A stretch of 64,000 nucleotides of DNA from an uncultured Clostridia bacterium. Its GTDB lineage: Bacteria > Bacillota > Clostridia > Christensenellales > UBA1242. The notes under the pieces are model-generated. The model made no database searches. It was not told where the DNA came from and saw nothing but the letters and a program-made list of their open reading frames with translations. Numbering within the stretch: position 1 is the stretch's first letter; each line of letters begins with the position of its first letter. The stretch spans positions 22,238-86,237 of the forward strand of contig CANQOO010000002.1 of assembly GCA_947625515.1 (NCBI GenBank), read 5' to 3'. The translations under genes were made by a program, and so were the position numbers. Below, in pieces: positions 30,562-63,523 of the stretch.

Positions 30562-32964
30562 ATGACAACTAAGAAAATTTTAGGTGTTATATTTGGTCTT
30601 GTTTTTATTGGTGCTTTTGCTTTTGTTTTAACTTGGGGCATTTTAAATTGGCAGCAAGTGAAAGATGGAATGAGCGGCAGCGGCCTTTACACGCAGGAAG
30701 ATTTAAACAATGCGTATGATGATGGCTATAATTCTGCTTTAAAAGATAAGAGCGAATATGACGAATTGGTTAATGGTTATCGAGATGAGATAACAAGACT
30801 GATTGATGAAAATTCAAAAGCAAATAGCAATTATAATGATTTGCAAAAAGAAAATAAAAGTTTGCAAGCAAATATTTCTTCACTTGAAAGTGCTAAATCT
30901 GGGCTTCAAGAGCAGGTTAAAAATTATGAAAATCAAGTGCAAACTTTGAATTCAACAATCGCAGAAAATAATACAAAAATAAGCGATTATGAAAATCAAA
31001 TTTCTCAGAAAGAAAAAGAAATTGAGAGATTGAAAATAAGTGGGACTAGTAAGGACTCAGAAATTTCTAACTTAAATGTGCAAATTACAAGTCTTCGTAG
31101 TCAAATTTCGTCACTGCAAACTGTTACATCTCAGTTAGAGTCAACTAATCAAGCAAATTTGACAACAATTTCAAATTTAAACGCACAAATTGTTTCATTA
31201 AATGCACAGATTGTGACGTTGCAAAATCAATATCAAGGGAATCAAGACACAATTAGTGCTTTGAATGATAAGATTAAGCAACTTGAAAAATCCATTGAGT
31301 ATTATGAGCAGTTTATTGCTAATTTGGAAAGTGGTGAAAATGTTGTTGCAACTTTTGAGTTCAATGGTTCGGTTTACAGCATTCAAATTTTGCAAAAAGG
31401 TGGGAAAGTTCTTTTCCCGACACCGGAATCAACAACTTATGCAATTTTCAATTACTGGCAAACTGAGAGTGGAGAAAAAGTTCAAGATACTTCTTCTTAC
31501 ACCATCTCAGAAAATACAAAATTTGTAGCAAATGTCACATTGAAATTTGATGTTAAATTTAGTGTTGACGGAGTCGTTCGAGAAAGCCAAATTGTTGAAA
31601 ATGGGCAAAAGCCTTCTCTGCCATCCGAAACTCCATCTAAGGCCGGTTATGACTTTGACGGTTGGACATTAAATGGTGTTGACATTGTTGACCCTACACA
31701 GCAGTCAGTGACTCAAAACACAACTTATATTGCAAAATTTACGCAAAAGTTTACAGTTAACTTCATGTATGAGAGTGAAACAAAATCTACTCAAGAAGTT
31801 CGTAGTGGTGGACATGCCCAAAATGTTGAAATTGAAAGCACAACATATAAGAAATTCAACGGTTGGAAAGTTAATGGCGAAATTGTTAATGTTGAAGATT
31901 ATGAGATTGTTGGAGCTACAACATTTGTTGCAGATATAACTTACTATTACGATGTTAAGTTTATGGTTAATGGCGAGCAATATGGACAAACACAAACTAT
32001 TGAAGCCGGCAAATTTGCTTCAGTGCCTGGTGACCCGTCAATGGCTGGTTACGACTTTATGGGCTGGACAGTCAATGGCTCTGATATGGTCGATGTTGCA
32101 AGTTATTCAGTCAACACCACAACAACTTTTACAGCAAAATTTGTAAGCTTTAAATTTGAAAGTATTGAGATTAATTTCCCTACTCGTGCTAATAATATTC
32201 TTTTTCAAGATAAATTTAATGCATATTACGTTTGGTCAGACGGTGTAAACACTTATTTTTCTAGGTATGTATCATCCTCTAAACGTTCAATAAATCTTGT
32301 TTTTGACCATGAATCTTTGACTTGGAAAGAAAAGAAATGGAATGGATTTGAAAATCTTTCTGGAGAGTATGTTTGGTCAGATGGTGAGAATGTTTATTAC
32401 AGTGCTTATTCTACTCAGTATGTCTTGAATAAAGAAACTGACACATGGGAAGTTAAAACCTGGAATGGATTTAGTGAAATTGATGGTCAACATATTTGGA
32501 CAGACGGTGAGAATGTTTATTATTCTTCTGCCACAAATCAATATGTTTTAAATAAAGATTCTGATACATGGGAAGTTAAAACCTGGAATGGATTTAATAA
32601 TATTTTTGGAGAATATGTATGGACTGATGGAACAAATTTATATTATTCCTTAAATAATTCTTCTGCACAATATGTGTTAAATGTTGAAACATCCACTTGG
32701 GAAGAAAAAATTTGGGATGGCTTTGCTCCAGCTTACGGCGATTCAATTTGGAACTATAACAATAATGTTTATTATTCCCTTAATGATGTCAACTATGTTC
32801 TTGATAAGAAAACTGGAAAATGGGTTGAAATGAATTGGTCTGGTTTGCCTGAATCATTTAATTCTTCCTTAAAAAACAGGTGGACATGCGGAGACGATGT
32901 GTATGTTGCTTTTTATGACTCTGGAAAATATGTTTCATATGTTCTGACCAGGAGTGAAATTTGA
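30562..32964 (+). CDS. large anchored repeat protein (adsorption-protein candidate)
   Basis: 800 aa: TM helix, ~180-aa coiled coil, 4 Listeria-Bacteroides-type repeats (AGYDFDGWTLNG, KKFNGWKVNG, AGYDFMGWTVNG, FNYWQTESG), then ~6 repeats of YVWSDGENVYYS..QYVLNK.TDTWE.K.WNGF. Confidence 0.75.
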   Translation: MTTKKILGVIFGLVFIGAFAFVLTWGILNWQQVKDGMSGSGLYTQEDLNNAYDDGYNSALKDKSEYDELVNGYRDEITRLIDENSKANSNYNDLQKENKSLQANISSLESAKSGLQEQVKNYENQVQTLNSTIAENNTKISDYENQISQKEKEIERLKISGTSKDSEISNLNVQITSLRSQISSLQTVTSQLESTNQANLTTISNLNAQIVSLNAQIVTLQNQYQGNQDTISALNDKIKQLEKSIEYYEQFIANLESGENVVATFEFNGSVYSIQILQKGGKVLFPTPESTTYAIFNYWQTESGEKVQDTSSYTISENTKFVANVTLKFDVKFSVDGVVRESQIVENGQKPSLPSETPSKAGYDFDGWTLNGVDIVDPTQQSVTQNTTYIAKFTQKFTVNFMYESETKSTQEVRSGGHAQNVEIESTTYKKFNGWKVNGEIVNVEDYEIVGATTFVADITYYYDVKFMVNGEQYGQTQTIEAGKFASVPGDPSMAGYDFMGWTVNGSDMVDVASYSVNTTTTFTAKFVSFKFESIEINFPTRANNILFQDKFNAYYVWSDGVNTYFSRYVSSSKRSINLVFDHESLTWKEKKWNGFENLSGEYVWSDGENVYYSAYSTQYVLNKETDTWEVKTWNGFSEIDGQHIWTDGENVYYSSATNQYVLNKDSDTWEVKTWNGFNNIFGEYVWTDGTNLYYSLNNSSAQYVLNVETSTWEEKIWDGFAPAYGDSIWNYNNNVYYSLNDVNYVLDKKTGKWVEMNWSGLPESFNSSLKNRWTCGDDVYVAFYDSGKYVSYVLTRSEI

Positions 32965-34601: not shown

Positions 34602-35576
34602 GTGAGCGATTTAAGTTATAACTTGTATTCGACTGAACGGCGTTATCGAAACGAAACTTTAATAAGTTTTTACTTTCAGCCGAATGAAAAAATTATGAAG
34701 AAATGTCGCCCTGTTGATATTCACGGCGAACGTTTGAGGCTCTATAATGACGGAGTCCTTGAAAATTATAAAAAGAAAGATGTTTTAAACTCAAAAAGCA
34801 CAAGTTTAAGAAGAACTGTTGTTTTAATGAACATGCTCCTTGCAATGAATGATTTTGACTGGTTCTGGACCCTCACCTTTGACAGGCAAAAGATTGACAG
34901 GACAAATGCTGAACTTGTTTTTAATTGTTATAAGAAATATATTGATAACATTAAAAAGAAATTTCCTACATTTAAATATATGACTTTTCCCGAACGTCAT
35001 GAAGATGGGTGTTTTCACTTTCATTTACTTACTGCTGGACTTACTCCTTCGCAAATGGGCTTGGTTAATTCTGGAAAAGTTTGTTGTCACTGGGCGAAGA
35101 AAAGAAAAAGAGGTGGATGGGAATTTACAAAAAATTGTTCAAAAGAATTTTTTGATAAAACTAAACATGAGCATGAACTACTTGATACTGATGGAGAAAC
35201 GCTCTATAATGCAACAACTTTTGCATATGGACTTACTACTGTCAGTCGAATTGTGAGCCGCGAAAGATGTAATTCATATGTGAAAAAATATGTTGAAAAA
35301 GCACTTGGCTCAACTGAGATATTTAAAAAGCGATTTTATTATTCTTCAAATTTAAATGTGCCGGAGGTTGTAAAACGTCTTGTTGGGGCTGATTTTGAAA
35401 CTCCAACACAAATTGATGAAGTTTCAAGTGTTGTCAATAGCCCGCTTGTCAAAAACTCCAAAGGGCAACCTTATGTGAGCGAATATAACGTTCTGCAAGT
35501 AAAAATTGACAACGAAACAAAACAAAATATAGATAAAGGCTTATTGCCATGCGAATTTGACGATTTGCCTTTTTAA
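34602..35576 (+). CDS. HUH-superfamily rolling-circle replication initiator
   Basis: GTG start. Motif I FWTLTFD, motif II CFHFHLL, motif III YVKKYVEK. Confidence 0.75.
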   Translation: MSDLSYNLYSTERRYRNETLISFYFQPNEKIMKKCRPVDIHGERLRLYNDGVLENYKKKDVLNSKSTSLRRTVVLMNMLLAMNDFDWFWTLTFDRQKIDRTNAELVFNCYKKYIDNIKKKFPTFKYMTFPERHEDGCFHFHLLTAGLTPSQMGLVNSGKVCCHWAKKRKRGGWEFTKNCSKEFFDKTKHEHELLDTDGETLYNATTFAYGLTTVSRIVSRERCNSYVKKYVEKALGSTEIFKKRFYYSSNLNVPEVVKRLVGADFETPTQIDEVSSVVNSPLVKNSKGQPYVSEYNVLQVKIDNETKQNIDKGLLPCEFDDLPF

Positions 35577-39239: not shown

Positions 39240-40228
39240 ATGAAAAAGAATAAAAAGATTTATATTAGAGCCTATTCCGCTGAAGAAAAACTTAAAGCGT
39301 TAAACTTATTAAAAAACTGTTCATTCGAGTTTGTTGCTCATAGATATCATTGCACAATACAATCTTTGTATCGCTGGAAGAAATTATATAATGGCTCTTT
39401 GGACAGTTTGCAGCCAAAATATTGTGCACCTTATACTCCTCATCCTAATCGACATTCTGAGGAAGAGATTAAGCATATTAGAGATTTAATAAAAAGAAAT
39501 TCTCATATTGGACTGAATGAATTATATGGCAAGTTGCGTTTGCATTACGGTTATACTAGACATCCATCAAGTTTATATCGTTTTTTAAGAAAACATGGCT
39601 ATTATGAGGCTATTAAAAAACAAAATAAGTATGTGCCACAACATTATGAAACTCCTGCAAGACTGGGCATGAAATGGCAGTTGGATGTTAAGTATGTCCC
39701 GCGAAGTTGTTATGTCGGAGATTTTAAGGATGAAAAAAGATTTTTTCAATACACTGTCATTGATGAGGCAACTCGCGAACGTTTTATTTATCCATATGAA
39801 GAGCAATGTCCACAATCAACAATCGACTTTGTTCGAAGGGCTATTGCATTCTTTCATTATAAGCCTAAGCAAATTCAAACTGATAATGGTGCTGAATTTA
39901 CATATCTTTTACAAACAAAACATGATAAAAACATCTTTTTGATTTGTTTTGTGAAAAGTATAATATTGAGCATAAGCTTATAAAGCCTCGAACTCCTCGA
40001 CATAATGGTAAGGTCGAGCGTTCGCATCGGAATGATAATGAAAGATTTTACAAATGGTTAAAATTTTATTCATATGAAGATTTAAAATTGCAAATGAAGG
40101 CTTATCTTGAAAGGTCAAATAATATTCCAATTTCAGTTTTAAGGACTCGTGATAATAAAACATCCTGGCTTACACCTATGCAAAAGCGTGCAGAATTGCT
40201 GCTTTTAGATTATGGAATAAAAGAATGA
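39240..40228 (+). pseudogene. IS481-like DDE (rve) transposase, split by a frameshift near 39925-39945
   Basis: HTH N-terminus. WQLDVKYV (D), IQTDNGAEF (D) in frame 1. KPRTPRHNGKVERSHR (E) in ORF 39944-40228. Frames switch at GATAAAAACATCTTTTTG. Confidence 0.7.
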
Positions 40229-42628: not shown

Positions 42629-42962
42629 ATAAAAACTCCTTTTTTGCATTTTTTGGCTCTTTTTTGCGTTTTTTTTGAATTTCAATTCTCATTTTCCATC
42701 GGCTCAAATTCAGTCAAAATTTTGTTCACAAAAATTGAAATCGTATTGATTCGTTCGCAGAACATAATTCACTATATTGTTCCTCAGGAAATTTCCACTT
42801 TCTTGAAAACTTCTGCTCACTGAATTGCAGAAATTTTCAAAATTTTTGTTCTGAGTCCGAAATGAATTTCATTCATCAAAACCGCAAAAAGTTTCAAAAC
42901 GCATTTCCACCCTTTCATTTTAGTCTTTTATGAAAAAAAAGTAAAGTTTTTGTGCCAGCAAA

Positions 42963-43020
42963 CAAAAAATCGGCAAAAGAATTTTGTCGATTTTCGTGCA
43001 ATTGATGATTTAAAATTTTT
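42963..43020. repeat. ~58-bp terminator-containing intergenic module, copy 1
   Basis: AAAAAATCGGCAAAAGAATTTTGTCGATTTTCGTGCAATTGATGATTTAAAATTTTT, similar to 44119-44177. Confidence 0.7.
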
Positions 43021-43034
43021 GGACACCAACTTAA

Positions 43035-43775
43035 TCACACATTCCCAATATCTTTGTGTGCGTCTTTAAACTCTTTGGAAAAATCATAGTCGGTGTTTTT
43101 AAAAGCCTTCTTGTTAAATGCTTCTGCTTCCGTTTGAAGTTGCGTTTTAAAACTTGCAAAGCCGTTTGCGTCGCCCTTCAAAACATATGTGCCATCATTT
43201 GCGGCGTATTTGCAACTTGTCACCTGCTCTGCACCATAGAAATTGGAATGATATGTTCGCACCTCATGGTGTTGAAAATCATAATTTATGTCGATTGTAT
43301 AATATTGCATACCTTGTATACTTTCAGAAGCTGAGCCTTCTGCAGTCATATAATATGTAATAGTAAGATTGTCGCCATCAACCTCAAATTGCATTTTAAG
43401 GTTCAGTCTATTTGACAAAAATTGGTCCACATGGAAAGTTATCACCTTGCTGGTTAAAGAATATGAGTCATTTTCCAGAATGCCCTTTGTCAGTGCAACC
43501 AATCTGCGGAAAACTGCAACTTGCTGTTTTGCCTCTTCCCCATCTTTCTTTTCCCAGTCTGCGTCCGTGAATGCCGCAGCCGAAGCGGAAGAATCATCAA
43601 AGTTCATCACTTTATATGTCGCATCAACGGCTTCAATATATTCCGCCCTTGTTCTTGCAAAGCCATCGCTCCACCAATCAAATTTCTCGCCAAAATAAAG
43701 CACTCCAAATGCCACGCACCCAATTGTGACAATCGTCACATAGACGGACAAGAGCACAACCCAAATTTTTTTCAT
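43035..43775 (-). CDS. membrane-anchored or lipoprotein-like surface protein (246 aa)
   Basis: AAGGAG RBS. N-terminus VVLLSVYVTIVTIGC. No family recognised. Confidence 0.7.
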   Translation of the reverse strand: MKKIWVVLLSVYVTIVTIGCVAFGVLYFGEKFDWWSDGFARTRAEYIEAVDATYKVMNFDDSSASAAAFTDADWEKKDGEEAKQQVAVFRRLVALTKGILENDSYSLTSKVITFHVDQFLSNRLNLKMQFEVDGDNLTITYYMTAEGSASESIQGMQYYTIDINYDFQHHEVRTYHSNFYGAEQVTSCKYAANDGTYVLKGDANGFASFKTQLQTEAEAFNKKAFKNTDYDFSKEFKDAHKDIGNV

Positions 43776-43950
43776 ACTTTTTCTCCTTTCTAATTCAAAA
43801 TTTTTCGGATTTATAAATCCATTCAGTCTTTTTCGAATTTAATTTTCGAGTTTTAAGTGTTTCAAATTTAATTTTAAAATTTTAATCTTTCCCAACTTAA
43901 TTTTCGAATTAACTTCTTCAATTTCATTTCTGAATTTTAAATCCACCCAA

Positions 43951-43982
43951 ATCATAGCACGGCTGGGGGGGGGATTTGTCAA
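43951..43982 (-). promoter_or_regulatory. promoter cassette TTGACA-aat-C9-agccg-TGcTATGAT (20-nt spacer)
   Basis: Minus-strand -35 at 43977-43982, C9 tract 43965-43973, extended -10 at 43951-43959. Same cassette as 48800-48830. Confidence 0.6.
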
Positions 43983-44118
43983 CTTTTTTTTGCAAATTTT
44001 TCAAAAATTTTTGATTTTTTTGCTTTTCATACTAATTTTCAACTTTTGTTCGCCTAATTTTTCGTTGTTTCTTAACATAATTTTCAAAATCCGCATTCTC
44101 CGGCGTTTTTGTCCCACA

Positions 44119-44177
44119 AAAAAAATCGGCAAAAAATTTGTCGATTTTCGTACATATTAATGATTTAAAAATTTTTA
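44119..44177. repeat. ~58-bp terminator-containing intergenic module, copy 2
   Basis: AAAAAAAATCGGCAAAAAATTTGTCGATTTTCGTACATATTAATGATTTAAAAATTTTT. Confidence 0.7.
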
Positions 44178-44995: not shown

Positions 44996-46357
44996 TCACA
45001 TGTCAATTCTGATGAAGGTCATCAGAAGGTCGGACCGAGAGCCGCCGTGCAATGTGCCAGTGTAGGAAATTTTGATGGTGTCCAGTTGGTCGAGGTTGAG
45101 AAACATTCCGTGGAAGAAATTGTCATACATCCCTTGCGGCACGGTGATTTTGCTGTCCTCCTCCTCTTGGTCGTTGATGTAGAGGCTGATTACAACGGAG
45201 GCATCCGTGGTGTGCATGGCGTCGATGTAGCCCTCCATAATCACATAATAAAGCCCTTCTTCGTTGACGGTGATGTCATAGTCGCCCACAGTGAGGGCAT
45301 TGGAGTCGGCAGGAATGACAATTCCGTCTGCAAGACCGGTGTAAAATCCGCCCAAAATGCTGCCCGCGTGGACGTTTTCAATCAGGCTGATGGGATTGAC
45401 GCCCGGTGGGCCAGGTATGCCCTCTGGAATGCCAAACGAGAGGACATGATTGTCGCCCACTTTTGTGTCGCTGACCGTCGCTTTGCTGCCGGCGGGAAGA
45501 GTGCTTGTTTGGCCAATCGAAATGGTGTCCGCCACACCCGGCGGGCCTTCCGGTCCTTGTGGCCCCATTGGACCTTGCTCGCCAGTTGCTCCGCCTCCTG
45601 GACCGCGTGGCCCCTGCTCCCCAACTGCACCGGTTGCACCTGTCGGACCGGTGGCACCTGTGGCTCCCGTTGCACCCGTAGCCCCTGTGGCACCAGTTGG
45701 ACCGGTCACTCCGCCTGCTGGACCTTGTGGGCCTGTCGCACCCGTGGCACCCATTGGCCCTGTCACGCCCATAGGTCCGGTTGCTCCTGTTGGACCGGTG
45801 GCACCCGTCGGACCTTGAGGACCCGTTGCACCAGTTGGACCAGTCGGACCAATCTGCCCCTCGCTCGGCACTACTCCCCCGCCGGGGAAAAGTCCTCCGC
45901 CCGGAGTAAACCCGCCTGGTGTAAGTCCGCCCGGCAAAGTCCCGCCGCCCGGAACAAACTGTCCACCGCCATTCATTCCGCCGCTTTGCCCACCACTCAT
46001 TCCACTCTGCCCACCATTTTGTTTGATGGCAATGCTTGCAGCCACAATCGAGCCATCAACAAATGTGGCATCCTCCGGAAAATTGTTCAGGCAAGGATTG
46101 CAAATCTTCCCACCCTTGGGCAAACAAACGGTCTGCCCGCAGCAAGGTTCCAGTCGCTGCCCTTCGCACTCTCTCTTCCCAAAAAGCGGCTGCCGCCCCA
46201 CATTTTGACACCCTTTCCCCTGCCCGCAGTTCTGGAAACTGTTGACCTGCCCGCCGCTGTTCTGGCAATTACTAGGCTGCCCGCTGCTTTTCTGACATTT
46301 TTTAGGTTGCCCACCGCACTTTTGGCAATTTTTCCCGCTGAAAAAACAATTTTTCAT
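44996..46357 (-). CDS. collagen-like triple-helix repeat protein with Cys-rich N-terminus and globular C-terminus
   Basis: 453 aa. N-terminal [23 protein letters not shown] repeats, ~45 GXT/GXY triplets ([16 protein letters not shown]...), C-terminal ~150-aa beta-rich domain. Locally GC-rich. Confidence 0.85.
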
Positions 46358-47103: not shown

Positions 47104-47500
47104 AAAATAAAGGCACAAAAAGTAGCAGAAAAACAACTAAAATAAGAATTTGCAAAAATTCCAAAGCAGTAAAAAAATAAATTTAAAAATAATAAGAATG
47201 AAAATTAAGTTTCTAAAAAAAAATCCACGAAAGTTAAATACAAAAATCTCACAAAAACACACTAAAAATCCCACAAAAACGTGCTAAAATTTCACAAAAA
47301 AATATAAAAAACAAAAAAAGAAGCCTATTTTGGCCTCTTTTTATTTTAATTTTTGAAATGTTTTGTTCTTTACATTTATATTTTTTATTTCCTAGAAATT
47401 TTTCGCATTCTTCTCGTTTTTATATTTATCTCAAAATATTTTATACTCGAAACTTTGCTTACTTGTTTACTAGAAATTTTGCTTTTTTATTTTTGAAAAA

Positions 47501-48799: not shown

Positions 48800-48830
48800 A
48801 TTCTATCACTTCGGGGGGGGGATTTGTCAA
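48800..48830 (-). promoter_or_regulatory. promoter cassette TTGACA-aat-C9-gaag-TGaTAGAAT (19-nt spacer)
   Basis: Minus-strand -35 at 48825-48830, C9 tract 48813-48821, extended -10 at 48800-48808. Confidence 0.6.
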
Positions 48831-49257
48831 CTTTTTTTCATATTTTTTCAAAGAAAATTTAAAAATTTTTAGGTTTTTATATTTTTCAAAAATTCCTAAG
48901 TTTTTTAAGTTTAATATTTCTTCAAGAAAATCTTTTTAAATTGTTTTCTCAGTTGCAAAAGCCCGCGTTCCGCATAAGATAAAGCCTTAACGCCTTGAGA
49001 GGGATCCTTCAAGTTTAGATTTAAACAATCTTTCTATATATACCTATTAAAATAACTTTCTTTGAGGGCTTTTGAGCATTTGAACCAACGTTTTAACTTT
49101 AAAAACTGCATTTTATGCCCTTGAATTTCTCGCCGCATCTAAACATCTTAAATACCCACAATTGAGCGTTTGAGTTGAAAAACTGCATTTTGCAACATCT
49201 GCCGCAAATAAAAAAAACACACTGGACATTTTCTGCCGTGTGCGTTTAAAGATGATT

Positions 49258-53971: not shown

Positions 53972-56701
53972 ATGGCTCTTTTTGGAAAACAGAAAAAAGA
54001 CAAAAAAAACAAGCTGGAAAACGTTTCTTTGTCTGAAGAAGAAACAACGGCTCCTGTTAAAGAGTCTCCTGCCGACACAAATTATGTCAGGGATTTATAT
54101 GAAGACCTCAAAAACAATGCAGACAACACTCTTGCCAAAGATGCACGTGCTTATGCAGTTGTTTTTAATGACGAGTTTGAAAAATTTAAACAAGGTCAAA
54201 CTTTCGTTGATGAAAATGCTGCGATTGCCTCTTTCCTTGGACAAGAAAGTGGAAATGTCGTGATCAACAGCGACGGCAAACTTGTTTCACGCCATAATCA
54301 AGAATTTGGCCCAAAAATGCATTTCGCAGACCTCTATTCAGATCTGCAAAACAGTCCCGAAAGCACTTTTTCAAAAAATGTTCGGGCATATGCCGAGGTT
54401 TTGAAAACTGATTTTGAAAAATTTAAACAGGGCAAATCTTTCCCAAGTGAAGATATCGCAGTTGTTTCTTTCTATGCACATGATTTAGGTCTCGTTAGAG
54501 ATGAAAACGGTTTGCTTGTAGACAAGCCAAACAAGGAATATTTTGCTCCAAGATTGCAAGCGGCTACATTTTATGTCACCATGAATGAGAATCCGGCCGA
54601 CAAGGCTGTTCAAAATGCAAAGCTGTATGCAGAGCTTTTCAAAGATGACTTTGAAAAATTTAAAAAAGAAAGAATTTTCTCAAATGACAATGCTGCAATT
54701 GCTGCTTTCTTCATGCATGAAAGCAAATTTGAAAAAGCAACTTTTCCTGAAAAATTTAAGCAAGTCCTGCAATATCGTCAAATGCATGAACCTAAACAGC
54801 CAACTCCAACAACCAACGAACAAAAGCAGTCCATTGCCAATGTACGCGAAAACTTGATTGGAAGCGATGACCTGACCGAGCAACTTCGTGCAGAAGCACT
54901 CGCTCCAAATTCAAAATCTCAATTTGTAGCAAATCAATCGAATGTTGCTGATGATGTAAATGTAGTTAACTCCGCTGACAACAGCACCTCATCCACAGAT
55001 TCTGGCAATGCGGGCAATTCGTCCGCGGAAAATGATGTTGTGGGCGGAAGTGATGCTGCCGGCGGAAATGATGCACCACAAAGCTCAACGGATGAAGCAG
55101 ACACTTCTTCGGAGGAAGGTGGCGACCCAGCCTCGGACGGCGACAATCCACCGGACAGCACTGGCGAAAGTGGCGACGACAACGCAAGCAACTCGCCCGA
55201 AGGAAGCGACGATATTCCGCAAGGAGAGCCGTCTGCAGTTGAGGTTTATGAGCGTAACCGCAGAGAATCGGGTGACAATGGCAACAATGGCGAATCCGGC
55301 AACAATGAGAGAGGGAATGATGGTGGCAACAACGGCGAGAATGGAAACAACGACAGCGGAAACAATGATGGTGGAAATGGCGGAAACGACGACAACCACG
55401 ACACCAATGATGTCATTAACGATGCAGCAGATGATGACACGCCGATAGCAAATGATGAAAATGAGGATAGTTCTGCTGGCGACGAACACACTGGCGACGA
55501 ACACGCTGATGACGTGCATACTGACCGCAAACACCTTGGCAACGAACAAGGTTTAAATCTAGAAACCAATCCAGACATCAATCGCCTGCGAGGATACATT
55601 CCAGAAGGGATTGACAACGAAAGTTTGGAAAAACATAACAAGCTTCAAGCAGCGTCGAAAAAAATTGCCAAGAAAAAAGTTAAGCCAAATCTCAAAATCA
55701 AGGCCACTGACCCATTTCCAACAATGACATTTCTCGGCGTTGCTATGATTGCAACGATGGTCTGCACCCTGGCACCATTTTCTATGCTTATTGGCGTTGT
55801 TTCAATTGGGATTTTGGCTGTGGCCGCGGTGATGTATATTCATCCAATTATCCAAATCAAAAAGCTCATAAACATAAATAGAGCTTGGCGAAAAGAACGA
55901 AACTTGATTAAAAGCAAAATTAAAGAACTGCAAAGTTGGAAGGCCTTGACAGAATCTAAAAATAAGAAAATTCGGGAAGAATTTAAGTCTCTCGACAAGG
56001 CCCTTGACAAAGAAATTAAACGCCTGAGAAAGTCCTTAGAATCAGAAAAATTGCAACGTCGCGAAAGAGCAAGAGAAGACCTTAAAAGAGGCTTTCAGGA
56101 GCAACTCACCGCCTTGCAAAATAAGGGCAAAGACATCTCTGCCACCGAAACCCGCAAAGTTAAAATTTTGCAAGACGCCATCAAGGAAGCCGATAGCGAT
56201 ATTAACAAGCTGAAAAAAGAAATTGTCAAATCCATGAAGGCAGAGGCGAAAAAAGAGCAACAACTTGAAGAAAAGGCGAAAAAGGCAGAGGAAAAAGCCA
56301 GGAAAAAGGCTCAGGCGAGACAAAGAGCCATCTTGGAAAGACAAGCCGCAGATGTCGCAATTTCTCAGCGTGCCAGAGAAGCTGCCAATGAATATATGAA
56401 AACCGCAGACGCCAGCCAGGCGGAAATTGCCAACAGCAAAGAAATTCGCGACATCCAAGCCAAGGCCGCAAAGGCACACAAAAAAGCAGAACAAGAGCAA
56501 AAGAAAGCGGAAAAGGCCGCAGCAAAAGCCGCAAAAGAGGCCGCAAAAAAAGCAAAAGAATCCAGCGACTACAAAACGCTGCGTTCATACACTCTCTCTG
56601 ACACGGCTGACCCAGCCACCCAGACGCCCGAAACAGCCCGCGAAACATCCGATGACAGCAGGCCAGCAGTCACCGCAGACAGAGACGGCAGAAGCATTTA
56701 A
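53972..56701 (+). CDS. large repeat / low-complexity membrane protein (909 aa)
   Basis: AGGAGG RBS. 3 x ~80-aa repeats (LY.DL.N...RAYA.V...DFEKFKQG), D/N/G/S acidic tract, two TM helices (~55720-55850), K/E/A coiled-coil tail. Confidence 0.8.
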   Translation: MALFGKQKKDKKNKLENVSLSEEETTAPVKESPADTNYVRDLYEDLKNNADNTLAKDARAYAVVFNDEFEKFKQGQTFVDENAAIASFLGQESGNVVINSDGKLVSRHNQEFGPKMHFADLYSDLQNSPESTFSKNVRAYAEVLKTDFEKFKQGKSFPSEDIAVVSFYAHDLGLVRDENGLLVDKPNKEYFAPRLQAATFYVTMNENPADKAVQNAKLYAELFKDDFEKFKKERIFSNDNAAIAAFFMHESKFEKATFPEKFKQVLQYRQMHEPKQPTPTTNEQKQSIANVRENLIGSDDLTEQLRAEALAPNSKSQFVANQSNVADDVNVVNSADNSTSSTDSGNAGNSSAENDVVGGSDAAGGNDAPQSSTDEADTSSEEGGDPASDGDNPPDSTGESGDDNASNSPEGSDDIPQGEPSAVEVYERNRRESGDNGNNGESGNNERGNDGGNNGENGNNDSGNNDGGNGGNDDNHDTNDVINDAADDDTPIANDENEDSSAGDEHTGDEHADDVHTDRKHLGNEQGLNLETNPDINRLRGYIPEGIDNESLEKHNKLQAASKKIAKKKVKPNLKIKATDPFPTMTFLGVAMIATMVCTLAPFSMLIGVVSIGILAVAAVMYIHPIIQIKKLININRAWRKERNLIKSKIKELQSWKALTESKNKKIREEFKSLDKALDKEIKRLRKSLESEKLQRRERAREDLKRGFQEQLTALQNKGKDISATETRKVKILQDAIKEADSDINKLKKEIVKSMKAEAKKEQQLEEKAKKAEEKARKKAQARQRAILERQAADVAISQRAREAANEYMKTADASQAEIANSKEIRDIQAKAAKAHKKAEQEQKKAEKAAAKAAKEAAKKAKESSDYKTLRSYTLSDTADPATQTPETARETSDDSRPAVTADRDGRSI

Positions 56702-62302: not shown

Positions 62303-63523
62303 CTATTTATTTAGGCTCTTTGCCACTGCCGTCAAGTTGAGGTGAAGTGCCGGACGGACGGCAGAGGTGCTGCTAACATTAATGCTAGGATGATCGCCGC
62401 CTTCCGCACTGAGGTCGCAAGCATAAGTTGACCCCGTGGAAGGAGCCGAACGCAACCAATAAATGTCGGAATTTGCTCGTTGATTTACTGACACCATCCA
62501 AAGGCTCTTGCCACCATGTCCCGTTTCAGACAGCGATGGGATCCAAAGTCTATCATCCGCCCATGCGTCGTTTTTAGCCTTTTTAGCGTAGTTATAATCA
62601 CCGCTGTAGAAGCCCTCGTCTGTCACTTCACTCGACCAAGCGTCATTAGAGATGTTATTCCAATATTTGGCAGAATCTATTGCGGACTGAAACTCCTGCC
62701 AAGCCACTTGCCTTGGAGTGACAATGAAGTCTGAAATCTCGTTATAATAAACGCCATCTGTCATTGTGAATTTGGCGAACACGCTTTGTTCATTTTGAAC
62801 ATAGTTCACCAACTCGGAATTTGCGGAGCCAGTTTTGTTGGAATATAGCCCTCCATTGTTTAACACGACCGCGTGCATATATGAAGCACCATAGAGATTG
62901 TCCGGTACTTCCGCAGCCCTTGACGCAGTAGCATTTGGGGCAAAGCCACTGCTCCAAGTGGAAGTTCCATTTTCATCAAATGTTTTCCCGTCGGCATATG
63001 TTTCTCCGCTCAGTTGCGAGGAATCCGTCAGCCAAAGGGTGAGAATCACGTCGTGCGGCTCGTTGTCTTTCCCCTCGTTTGTGGTGGAAAGAAAGACCGG
63101 CGTCCATTTAAGCCCGCCCAGCTCCACAATAATTTCCGCATCATAACTCTTGGCAGAGACGGAATAATTGTCGTCCGCAGATGCGGGGTTCACCTTGTTG
63201 TAGTTTGCAATTATGTCCTCCGAGGTCATCCTTGTTGTTGCAAGGGTTTCAATCGGTGCCATGTTGTCCACCGTCGCTGTGCTGTCGCCTGAAATGTTCC
63301 ACAACAGTTTGTTGACATTGCTCTTGTCAAAAACTTGTGACACACTGTCCCATAGGTCCTGCGAAATGTCATAGATAACAGAAAAGCCGCCCTCAATGCC
63401 AGTCGAAAGAGCAGCCAAAACTATGTTGGTCATTGTGCATGCAATAACAAAAAGAAAAAGACAAACAAAGCCGGTGTATTTCAGCTTGTCAAATATACCC
63501 CCCCCCGCAAATTTACGCCTCAT
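62303..63523 (-). CDS. secreted/surface protein, paralog of 10951-12699, with G9 tract in codons 6-9
   Basis: 406 aa, AAAGGAG RBS. Shared blocks DIIANYNK, SYDAEII.ELG.L.WTPV.LS, ILTLWL.D, WIPSLSETG, WLRS, AVRPALHLNL. Confidence 0.75.
   Translation of the reverse strand: MRRKFAGGGIFDKLKYTGFVCLFLFVIACTMTNIVLAALSTGIEGGFSVIYDISQDLWDSVSQVFDKSNVNKLLWNISGDSTATVDNMAPIETLATTRMTSEDIIANYNKVNPASADDNYSVSAKSYDAEIIVELGGLKWTPVFLSTTNEGKDNEPHDVILTLWLTDSSQLSGETYADGKTFDENGTSTWSSGFAPNATASRAAEVPDNLYGASYMHAVVLNNGGLYSNKTGSANSELVNYVQNEQSVFAKFTMTDGVYYNEISDFIVTPRQVAWQEFQSAIDSAKYWNNISNDAWSSEVTDEGFYSGDYNYAKKAKNDAWADDRLWIPSLSETGHGGKSLWMVSVNQRANSDIYWLRSAPSTGSTYACDLSAEGGDHPSINVSSTSAVRPALHLNLTAVAKSLNK
63498..63506 (-). repeat. 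G9 (coding strand) homopolymer inside the 5-prime end of CDS 62303-63523
   Basis: ATG AGG CGT AAA TTT GCG GGG GGG GGT ATA; C9 on the + strand. Confidence 0.95.

Follow-up and report, generated by a model that had tools for sequence, protein, structure and literature searches.

We analysed a 64,000-nucleotide (nt) stretch of DNA from an uncultured, gut-type Clostridia bacterium (contig CANQOO010000002.1), referred to here as the window, in which two promoter cassettes on the minus strand, A and B, each carry a run of nine cytosines (C9) between the -35 and -10 boxes. The cassettes lie upstream of two unrelated genes for predicted surface proteins, and the C9 run was present in every copy recovered, including the orthologous promoters of two other species. 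The analysis shows the promoter anatomy, a tract that is non-random and conserved, outlying spacers, and orphan products with a surface location. We put at about even the chance that these are sigma-A promoters of the extended -10 type in which slippage of the C-tract tunes the spacing between -35 and -10, in the manner of the meningococcal opc or Bordetella fim promoters.

Anatomy of the cassettes and the excess of nine-nucleotide tracts

On the minus strand, cassette A reads AAAAAAAG-TTGACA-AAT-CCCCCCCCC-GAAGTGA-TAGAAT from 48838 to 48800, and cassette B reads AAAAAAAG-TTGACA-AAT-C9-AGCCGTGC-TATGAT from 43990 to 43951 (both as found in the window; the individual elements are listed in Table 1). 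The -10 hexamer of cassette A matches five of the six positions of TATAAT and is preceded by GTG at -16 to -14, which places TG at -15/-14. Judged by these elements, both cassettes have the anatomy of sigma-70/sigma-A promoters. An original prediction for this DNA had described cassette A as a consensus -35, a C9 run and an extended -10 with a 19-nt spacer, upstream of a lipoprotein gene. The sequence confirmed each of these elements, and a lipobox signal was read from the 415-amino-acid (aa) product of that gene. The same prediction placed a recurrence of the cassette at 43951-43990; the second cassette is present there, with a spacer of 20 nt and not 19 nt.

Eight other well-formed intergenic promoters in the window, all with a perfect TTGACA and a good -10, had spacers of 16-18 nt. 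The spacers of 19 nt (cassette A) and 20 nt (cassette B) are outliers by comparison and are over-long, as had been claimed for cassette A. Alternative -10 hexamers placed 16-18 nt from the -35 all lacked the key A2/T6 positions, and none was credible. A homopolymer of at least ~7-8 nt between a recognisable -35 and -10 was found, as C9, in both cassettes and in two orthologous promoters. From what is known of sigma-70-type promoters, both cassettes are predicted to be weak via the -35 and partly active via the extended -10. Because spacers of 19 and 20 nt exceed the optimum, the predicted condition is a low state, dependent on the extended -10; owing to that same element, a clean ON/OFF switch is unlikely and graded expression is more plausible.

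Spacers of 19-20 nt are also the hallmark of MerR-family target promoters, in which an activator bound to the over-long spacer untwists the DNA and realigns the two boxes, and the measured spacers of 19 and 20 nt would suit this. The region from -35 to -10 of cassette A, however, held no inverted repeat of any kind, and that of cassette B held only a 6-nt pair that straddles the -35/-10 boxes and is not common to A. The orthologous promoters combine the same C9 with normal spacers of 16-17 nt, and no MerR-like gene is adjacent. A MerR-type promoter, which we consider very improbable, was rejected for want of a dyad operator.

Strict identity between cassettes A and B extends over 26 nt, A7-GTTGACAAAT-C9, and ends exactly at the last C of the run. 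The two copies are 4.8 kb apart. Upstream of the -35 they are ~75% alike in A/T-rich sequence that can be aligned over ~30 nt, and they have a AAAAATTTTT motif in common, so the similarity of ~45 bp upstream of the -35 described previously was a fair account. The motif is palindromic and lies upstream of the -35 by 40 nt in cassette A, by 39 and 40 nt in the two orthologues, and by 30 nt in cassette B. In cassette A the DNA between the motif and the -35 is A/T-rich and resembles an UP element. The motif itself could act through phased A-tract bending, as an UP element or as a factor site.

Runs of G or C in the window numbered 127 at 4 nt and 15 at 5 nt; there were none of 6, 7 or 8 nt, and three of 9 nt. 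By our own arithmetic, using either extrapolation of the decay or a first-order model, ~0.01-0.05 runs of nine were expected, which upholds the earlier statement that a 9-nt G/C homopolymer is unlikely by chance in this DNA. Runs of A and of T showed a smooth decay with length and no such gap. The pattern TTGACA-N2-6-C5 gave 8 overlapping matches, all at the cassette A and B loci, versus 0.13 expected, and 0 of 100 shuffles reached this count. A chance origin of the C9 tracts is excluded. Internal G/C runs in the SecA neighbourhoods of relatives did not exceed 5 nt, which indicates that the DNA of this lineage does not carry long tracts as a rule.

The third run of nine, which was not part of the original prediction, is a G9 close to the start of a coding region. 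Only G9 keeps the reading frame open (406 codons), while G7, G8, G10 and G11 each lead to a stop within 10-14 codons; as read, this tract has the anatomy of a classic translational ON/OFF switch. When this tract is read as C, the sequence before it is TTGTCAAATATA, which nearly matches the TTGACAAAT of the cassettes (empirical chance ~0.005). The C-terminus of the 406-aa product gave a weak, sub-threshold match to DUF6273. An exact look-up of the protein returned no contig on record that encodes the intact product, and the contig of the neighbouring tRNA synthetase (L019) ends ~240 nt short of the tract. The tract-linked products, one lipoprotein and two membrane-anchored proteins, are without known domains or almost without relatives. 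The in-frame G9 and the two promoters suggest a small set of poly-G/C contingency loci, with at least three in the window.

Conservation of the tract and the competing explanations

The same-species comparison used seven independent assemblies (contigs) from four ENA samples, ERZ27249386, ERZ27249389, ERZ27249395 and ERZ27249684; the contigs were 99.4-100% identical to the window and near-clonal. Cassette A was C9 in 4 of 4 contigs (L004, L005, L006 and L010) and cassette B was C9 in 3 of 3 (L007, L008 and L009). Each contig had 0-4 single-nucleotide polymorphisms relative to the window; the other differences were a 3-bp gap, a length change of ~77 bp in a collagen-like gene and, in the lipoprotein gene, an in-frame deletion of 33 bp. 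The 33-bp deletion was found in L010 (sample ERZ27249684), where it removes 11 aa (residues 328-338) of the lipoprotein; the promoter of this contig is still C9.

Two orthologues of the 246-aa protein encoded downstream of cassette B, both 70% identical to it, were found on Logan contigs (L020 and L021) from two other samples, SRR27728183 and SRR29273042, with DNA 75-77% identical to the window. Their promoters read TTGACA-ATTT-C9-GTGT-TATGAT (spacer 17 nt) and TTGACA-ATT-C9-GTGT-TATGAT (spacer 16 nt), with a AAAAATTTT(T) motif placed 39-40 nt ahead of the -35. Since C9 is kept in the orthologous promoters of two other species, the tract is an ancestral, maintained part of the promoter, and in the relatives that promoter has optimal spacing. 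Cassette A has the upstream block of the orthologues as well as the 40-nt offset, and thus looks like a copy of the cassette B promoter placed before an unrelated gene.

The recurrence of the tract bears on whether such homopolymers might be sequencing or assembly artefacts, for example poly-G from two-colour chemistry. One G8 run in a relative (L017), 7 nt from the end of its contig, does sit in a typical place for an artefact. The three tracts of the window, however, are internal to their contigs and one of them keeps a 406-codon frame open, and tracts with the same flanks recurred in the seven same-species assemblies, which are independent and come from four samples, and in the Logan assemblies of the two other species. 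The tracts are reproducible, and the artefact reading, almost certainly wrong, was rejected.

Further copies were sought in public data. The cassette search of species-representative genomes (596 Gb) gave three matches, with ~4 expected for a 19-mer. Two of these, in a Bryobacteraceae genome (L002, C11) and in Mucilaginibacter (L003, C8), belong to unrelated phyla and were judged to be chance-level matches. The other, in a Clostridiales metagenome-assembled genome (MAG; L001, JAJQBL010000108.1, 2900-2940, minus strand), has A7-GTTGACAAAT followed by C6 in a promoter with a normal 17-nt spacer; the downstream gene, whose product starts with MTAIIVTGGKQYKV, we take to be that for ribosomal protein L21. 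The one match on a viral contig lay within GC-rich coding DNA and was attributed to chance. In JGI metagenomes there were no matches to the cassette 22-mer, and no relatives turned up when the 246-aa family was sought by a protein-guided scan. Exact-protein look-ups for other strains returned no record with GroEL and no further contigs with GroES. In the SecA neighbourhoods of relatives (85-90% identity), synteny was lost on the cassette side, and these neighbourhoods held no orthologous promoters and no long tracts. The G8 run of L017 (18193-18200), from one of these relatives, is probably an effect of the assembly edge or of sequencing chemistry.

Several observations weigh against tuning of the promoters by slippage. 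No variation in tract length was seen: 9 of 9 alleles (seven contigs and two species) were C9, in consensus sequences of 3-4x coverage in which minority alleles are invisible. Heterogeneity of the tract across strains was the check put forward by the original prediction, and an invariant tract was to count as refutation; the tract was invariant at C9, so a part of that refutation was found. The invariance goes against very fast, unconstrained switching, as a weak test made on near-clonal consensus sequences of 3-4x coverage. The spacers of 16, 17, 19 and 20 nt differ through their flanks (AAT, ATT or ATTT before the tract; GTGT, GAAGTGA or AGCCGTGC after it), with the tract itself constant, and a pure spacer-tuning role predicts the opposite of a constant tract with varying flanks. 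Cassette B is three C's away from a spacer of 17 nt, and the extended -10 may lessen the importance of the -35 spacing. The slippage-tuned promoter of the original prediction is thus borne out in its anatomy, outlier spacers, non-random conserved tract and surface-exposed, fast-evolving products, but not by the invariant C9 or by the source of the spacer variation.

The same constancy would be expected if TTGACA-AWT-C9 were a fixed-length cis-element, read as a unit, whether by RNA polymerase itself or by a dedicated regulator bound over or beside the -35, and co-regulating a few surface-protein genes. The tract is exactly C9 in four of four promoters from three species, with the surrounding bases changed. 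It is anchored to the -35 side, at 3-4 nt in all four promoters, while its distance to the -10 varies (4, 4, 7 and 8 nt). Cassettes A and B hold an identical 26-mer in one genome, the AAAAATTTTT motif stands upstream at a fixed or helically phased distance, and the third tract in its C orientation is also preceded by TTGTCAAAT (empirical chance ~0.005). Against a fixed element, a promoter element makes little sense at the third tract, which is within a coding sequence that has a good ribosome-binding site (RBS), and neither spacer contains a dyad-symmetric operator. We are also aware of no bacterial regulator with a poly-C run as its recognition sequence, which counts against this explanation. 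Copying or gene conversion probably links A and B, which leaves just three independent observations. Mutational bias alone can, in addition, produce a modal length of nine (PMC3401435). We regard a fixed element as unlikely. More doubtful still is its most specific form. Here the -35 and C9, together with a phased A5T5 motif farther upstream, would make up a composite that is kept across species of this uncultured Clostridia lineage. A new poly-C/poly-G factor, or RNA polymerase itself, would read the composite, and the genes so marked would be a small regulon for fast-evolving surface proteins.

The constancy of C9 would fit both the mutational mode of a slippage-prone tract and a sequence element in its own right, and with only about three independent observations the two cannot be separated. 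Should the tracts prove not to slip, the exact conservation of C9 beside the -35 would call for another, more unusual explanation.

A third possibility is that these are ordinary static promoters, in which the C-run is inherited baggage of a block that was duplicated in the genome, the changes that lengthened the spacers to 19-20 nt are fixed and lower expression, and biologically relevant switching is absent. The tract length is invariant in all the data. Relative to the orthologues, the window cassettes have 3-4 additional non-C bases at the junction between the tract and GTG (GAA in A; AGCC in B, at 43961-43964 between the tract and the extended -10), and such additional bases at the same junction in both promoters would be a stable and not a reversible weakening. 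The C6 in the normal 17-nt-spacer promoter of the unrelated Clostridiales MAG L001 implies that strong promoters can hold C-runs without harm. If neutral, however, a homopolymer of 9 nt should decay by point mutation, and this one is intact at ~25% DNA divergence while neighbouring intergenic bases have changed. Nor do static promoters account for three runs of 9 nt with none of 6-8 nt, for the link of all three tracts to surface proteins, or for the exact translational-switch anatomy of one of them. Static promoters seem unlikely to us.

Under the slippage mechanism that we favour, each promoter would consist of an A/T-rich upstream block, TTGACA, a C9 tract set 3-4 nt downstream of this -35, and an extended -10 of Gram-positive style, GTGn-TAnnAT. 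The tract would be maintained because it is slippage-prone. Gain or loss of C's during replication would alter both the distance and the angle between -35 and -10, and the altered geometry would change the amount of surface protein in a heritable yet reversible way, as graded control and not as a clean switch. The window promoters, with spacers of 19 and 20 nt, would now be in a low state; expression would rise on loss of one or two C's in cassette A and of two or three in cassette B. A high state would be represented by the two related species, where C9 goes with spacers of 17 and 16 nt. We infer that transcription starts at these cassettes, that the tracts slip at a useful rate and that tract length affects expression.

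Downstream genes and genomic context

The start codon of the lipoprotein gene, which has a strong RBS, is 51 nt from the -10 of cassette A. The N-terminus of the 415-aa product, MKKLLSVMACVAMVLVCGLTLCAC-G, reads as a lipoprotein-type signal with an L-C-A-C lipobox. The protein gave no Pfam or NCBIfam match, and among 1.84 billion representatives it had two relatives, both weak (28-34% identity); a single 97% relative is the same strain with the 11-aa deletion. By these comparisons the lipoprotein is an orphan. An AlphaFold single-sequence model had a predicted local distance difference test (pLDDT) score of 36 and was too poor for a fold search. A hairpin and T-run follow the gene, which suggests a single-gene transcription unit.

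The 246-aa product of the gene behind cassette B is unrelated to the 415-aa lipoprotein (BLASTP E = 0.83), and only the latter has a lipobox. The distance from -10 to ATG is 44-45 nt in both orthologues versus a 175-nt leader in the window, where 43801-43821 resembles 43925-43945 as part of a duplication. The leaders 3' of both promoters matched no Rfam family at the gathering score, and the whole window gave three tRNAs only. A hairpin and T-run also follow the 246-aa gene (~42960-42995). Near-identical terminator-like hairpins, ATCGACAAA...TTTGCCGAT with a T-run, occur at 42959-43000 and 44115-44154 (plus-strand coordinates), after the 246-aa gene and a serine-hydrolase gene respectively, and L020, from a related species, has the same hairpin (20-50) upstream of its orthologous promoter.

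Housekeeping genes surround the cassettes: groES/groEL (42628-40718), tRNA-Gly (49331-49258), secA (53693-50958), and genes for a tRNA synthetase, an extracytoplasmic function (ECF)-type sigma factor, a SpoU methylase and YchF. The stretch from secA to groES also holds domain-less proteins and a collagen-like protein of the BclA/Scl type. This collagen-like protein (44996-46357, minus strand) has G-X-Y repeats and a weak match to the BclA C-terminus. The ~77-bp difference between L005 and the window at 46101-46178 lies inside or near its gene, and the repeats may vary in length between strains. The nearest public relative of SecA is 90% identical, and identity to that of a Candidatus Caccovivens sp. 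MAG (Clostridia) is ~81%. The organism itself is rare: it was recovered as short ENA contigs only, and from no JGI metagenome. A CIRCE operator was looked for upstream of groES and none was found.

Divergent from secA is a gene for a 909-aa protein (53972-56701, plus strand) with no Pfam match. At this position relatives (L011-L018) hold proteins of 1040 to 1706 aa, mostly domain-less, and the locus upstream of secA varies strongly in size among them. Between ~26000 and 40000 the window contains a low-GC island (0.28-0.35 vs ~0.42) with positive GC skew and all genes on the plus strand. Its genes include those for a REP_ORF2-G2P replication protein (34602-35576), an rve-type transposase (39240-39983), and a protein of 800 aa that contains a coiled coil and Listeria-Bacteroides repeats (30562-32964). 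The island is probably an integrated mobile element or a prophage-like region.

Table 1. Coordinates of the promoter elements, tracts and associated genes in the window.
Feature	Position	Strand	Remarks
Cassette A, -35 TTGACA	48825..48830	-	consensus; A7-G precedes at 48838-48831
Cassette A, poly-C tract (C9)	48813..48821	-	inside 19-nt spacer; AAT between -35 and tract
Cassette A, extended -10 TGaTAGAAT	48800..48808	-	hexamer 48805-48800; GAAGTGA between C9 and hexamer
AAAAATTTTT motif, upstream edge of cassette A	48861..48870	-	40 nt before -35
Lipoprotein gene, 415 aa	47501..48748	-	AGGAG RBS 48760-48756, N7, ATG 48748
Terminator-like hairpin and T-run	47315..47342	-	3' of lipoprotein gene
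Cassette B, -35 TTGACA	43977..43982	-	
Cassette B, poly-C tract (C9)	43965..43973	-	inside 20-nt spacer; AAT between -35 and tract
Cassette B, extended -10 TGcTATGAT	43951..43959	-	hexamer 43956-43951
AAAAATTTTT motif of cassette B	44003..44012	-	30 nt before -35, one helical turn nearer than in cassette A and orthologues
Leader of cassette B gene, 175 nt	43776..43950	-	~124-nt internal duplication and 29-nt repeats
Gene for 246-aa protein	43035..43775	-	N-terminal membrane anchor, no known domain; just upstream of groES/groEL
Third 9-nt tract (G9)	63498..63506	-	codons 6-9 of open reading frame 62303-63523
Gene for 406-aa protein	62303..63523	-	N-terminal signal-anchor (MRRKFAGGGIFDKLKYTGFVCLFLFVIAC...); good RBS AAGGAGaaacaaaaATG
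Comparison promoters (start)	6416, 40337, 44337, 53911	+	
Comparison promoters (start)	63671, 39142, 26539, 10428	-	

Comparison with known slippage systems

To our knowledge, the documented switches in Clostridia are invertible promoters. If the tracts described here slip, they would form a poly-G/C contingency set (two promoters and one coding tract in 64 kb) in an uncultured, commensal-type Clostridia lineage. Multi-locus phase variation by slippage is known nearly exclusively in pathogens, and a 2025 review treats this seeming restriction, with a possible database bias as its cause, as an open question (PMC11868660). If true, our reading would mean that the slippage strategy is also used in commensal-type Clostridia, on lineage-specific surface proteins that are probably under phage or host immune pressure. 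Cassettes A and B are candidates for the class of phase-variable promoters, which cannot be claimed for them yet.

In meningococci, the promoter spacers of porA and fetA contain a poly-G and a poly-C tract, respectively. As in opc, porA and fetA, a G/C homopolymer lies here inside a sigma-70-type promoter of a surface-protein gene; in the meningococcal genes it sets the promoter geometry and gives graded expression. Size variation of the poly-cytidine run in the opc promoter of N. meningitidis is a proven expression switch; 5 of 17 clones had 12C or 14C in place of 11C (PMC6389960). Whereas the tracts of the meningococcus, a proteobacterial pathogen, vary between strains and clones, those of the window are 9 nt in every copy and belong to promoters with a strong extended -10 in a Gram-positive-type anaerobe (Clostridia).

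The promoter poly-C of the Bordetella fim genes is likewise a proven expression switch, with a difference of approximately four-fold between C7 and C8 in fimX, and the tracts are polymorphic among strains, at 10-15 in fim2 and 13-18 in fim3 (PMC1891110). The cassettes resemble fim2, fim3 and fimX in that a conserved poly-C promoter block recurs upstream of several genes for surface structures. The Bordetella C-stretch, however, is longer and lies between the -10 and the site of the BvgA activator, with a 'fim box', whereas the window cassettes have a consensus -35, show no sign of an activator site and precede genes unrelated to each other.

The vlp promoters of Mycoplasma hyorhinis carry a poly-A tract in the spacer. 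In this low-GC, Gram-positive-derived organism, as in the window, a conserved block with a homopolymer spacer is repeated before different surface-protein genes. The Vlp system is among those cited in the 2025 review (PMC11868660, refs 20-21). Unlike the vlp genes, which form one paralogous family with shared signal peptides, the genes behind cassettes A and B encode unrelated products of which one only is a lipoprotein, and the tract is poly-C and not poly-A.

Campylobacter jejuni lacks mismatch repair. Like the window, its genome has several G/C tracts, with nine as the modal length and chiefly in surface-structure genes, and the third tract has the same intragenic anatomy; the C. jejuni tracts are mainly intragenic, whereas two of those found here are in promoters and one is in a coding region. 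The modal length of its poly-G/C tracts is nine, because insertion is favoured at G9 or below and deletion at G10 or above: G8-G9 mutate mainly by insertion and G10-G11 by deletion, and the tract mutation rates range from 0.4 to 39 x 10^-4 per division (PMC3401435). Measured switching in this organism runs at about 1e-4 to 4e-3 per division. If confirmed, the mechanism proposed for cassettes A and B would be already known in kind from these systems, and the new aspects would be the host lineage, the strict conservation of C9 across species, and the presence of tracts at multiple loci outside the classic pathogens.

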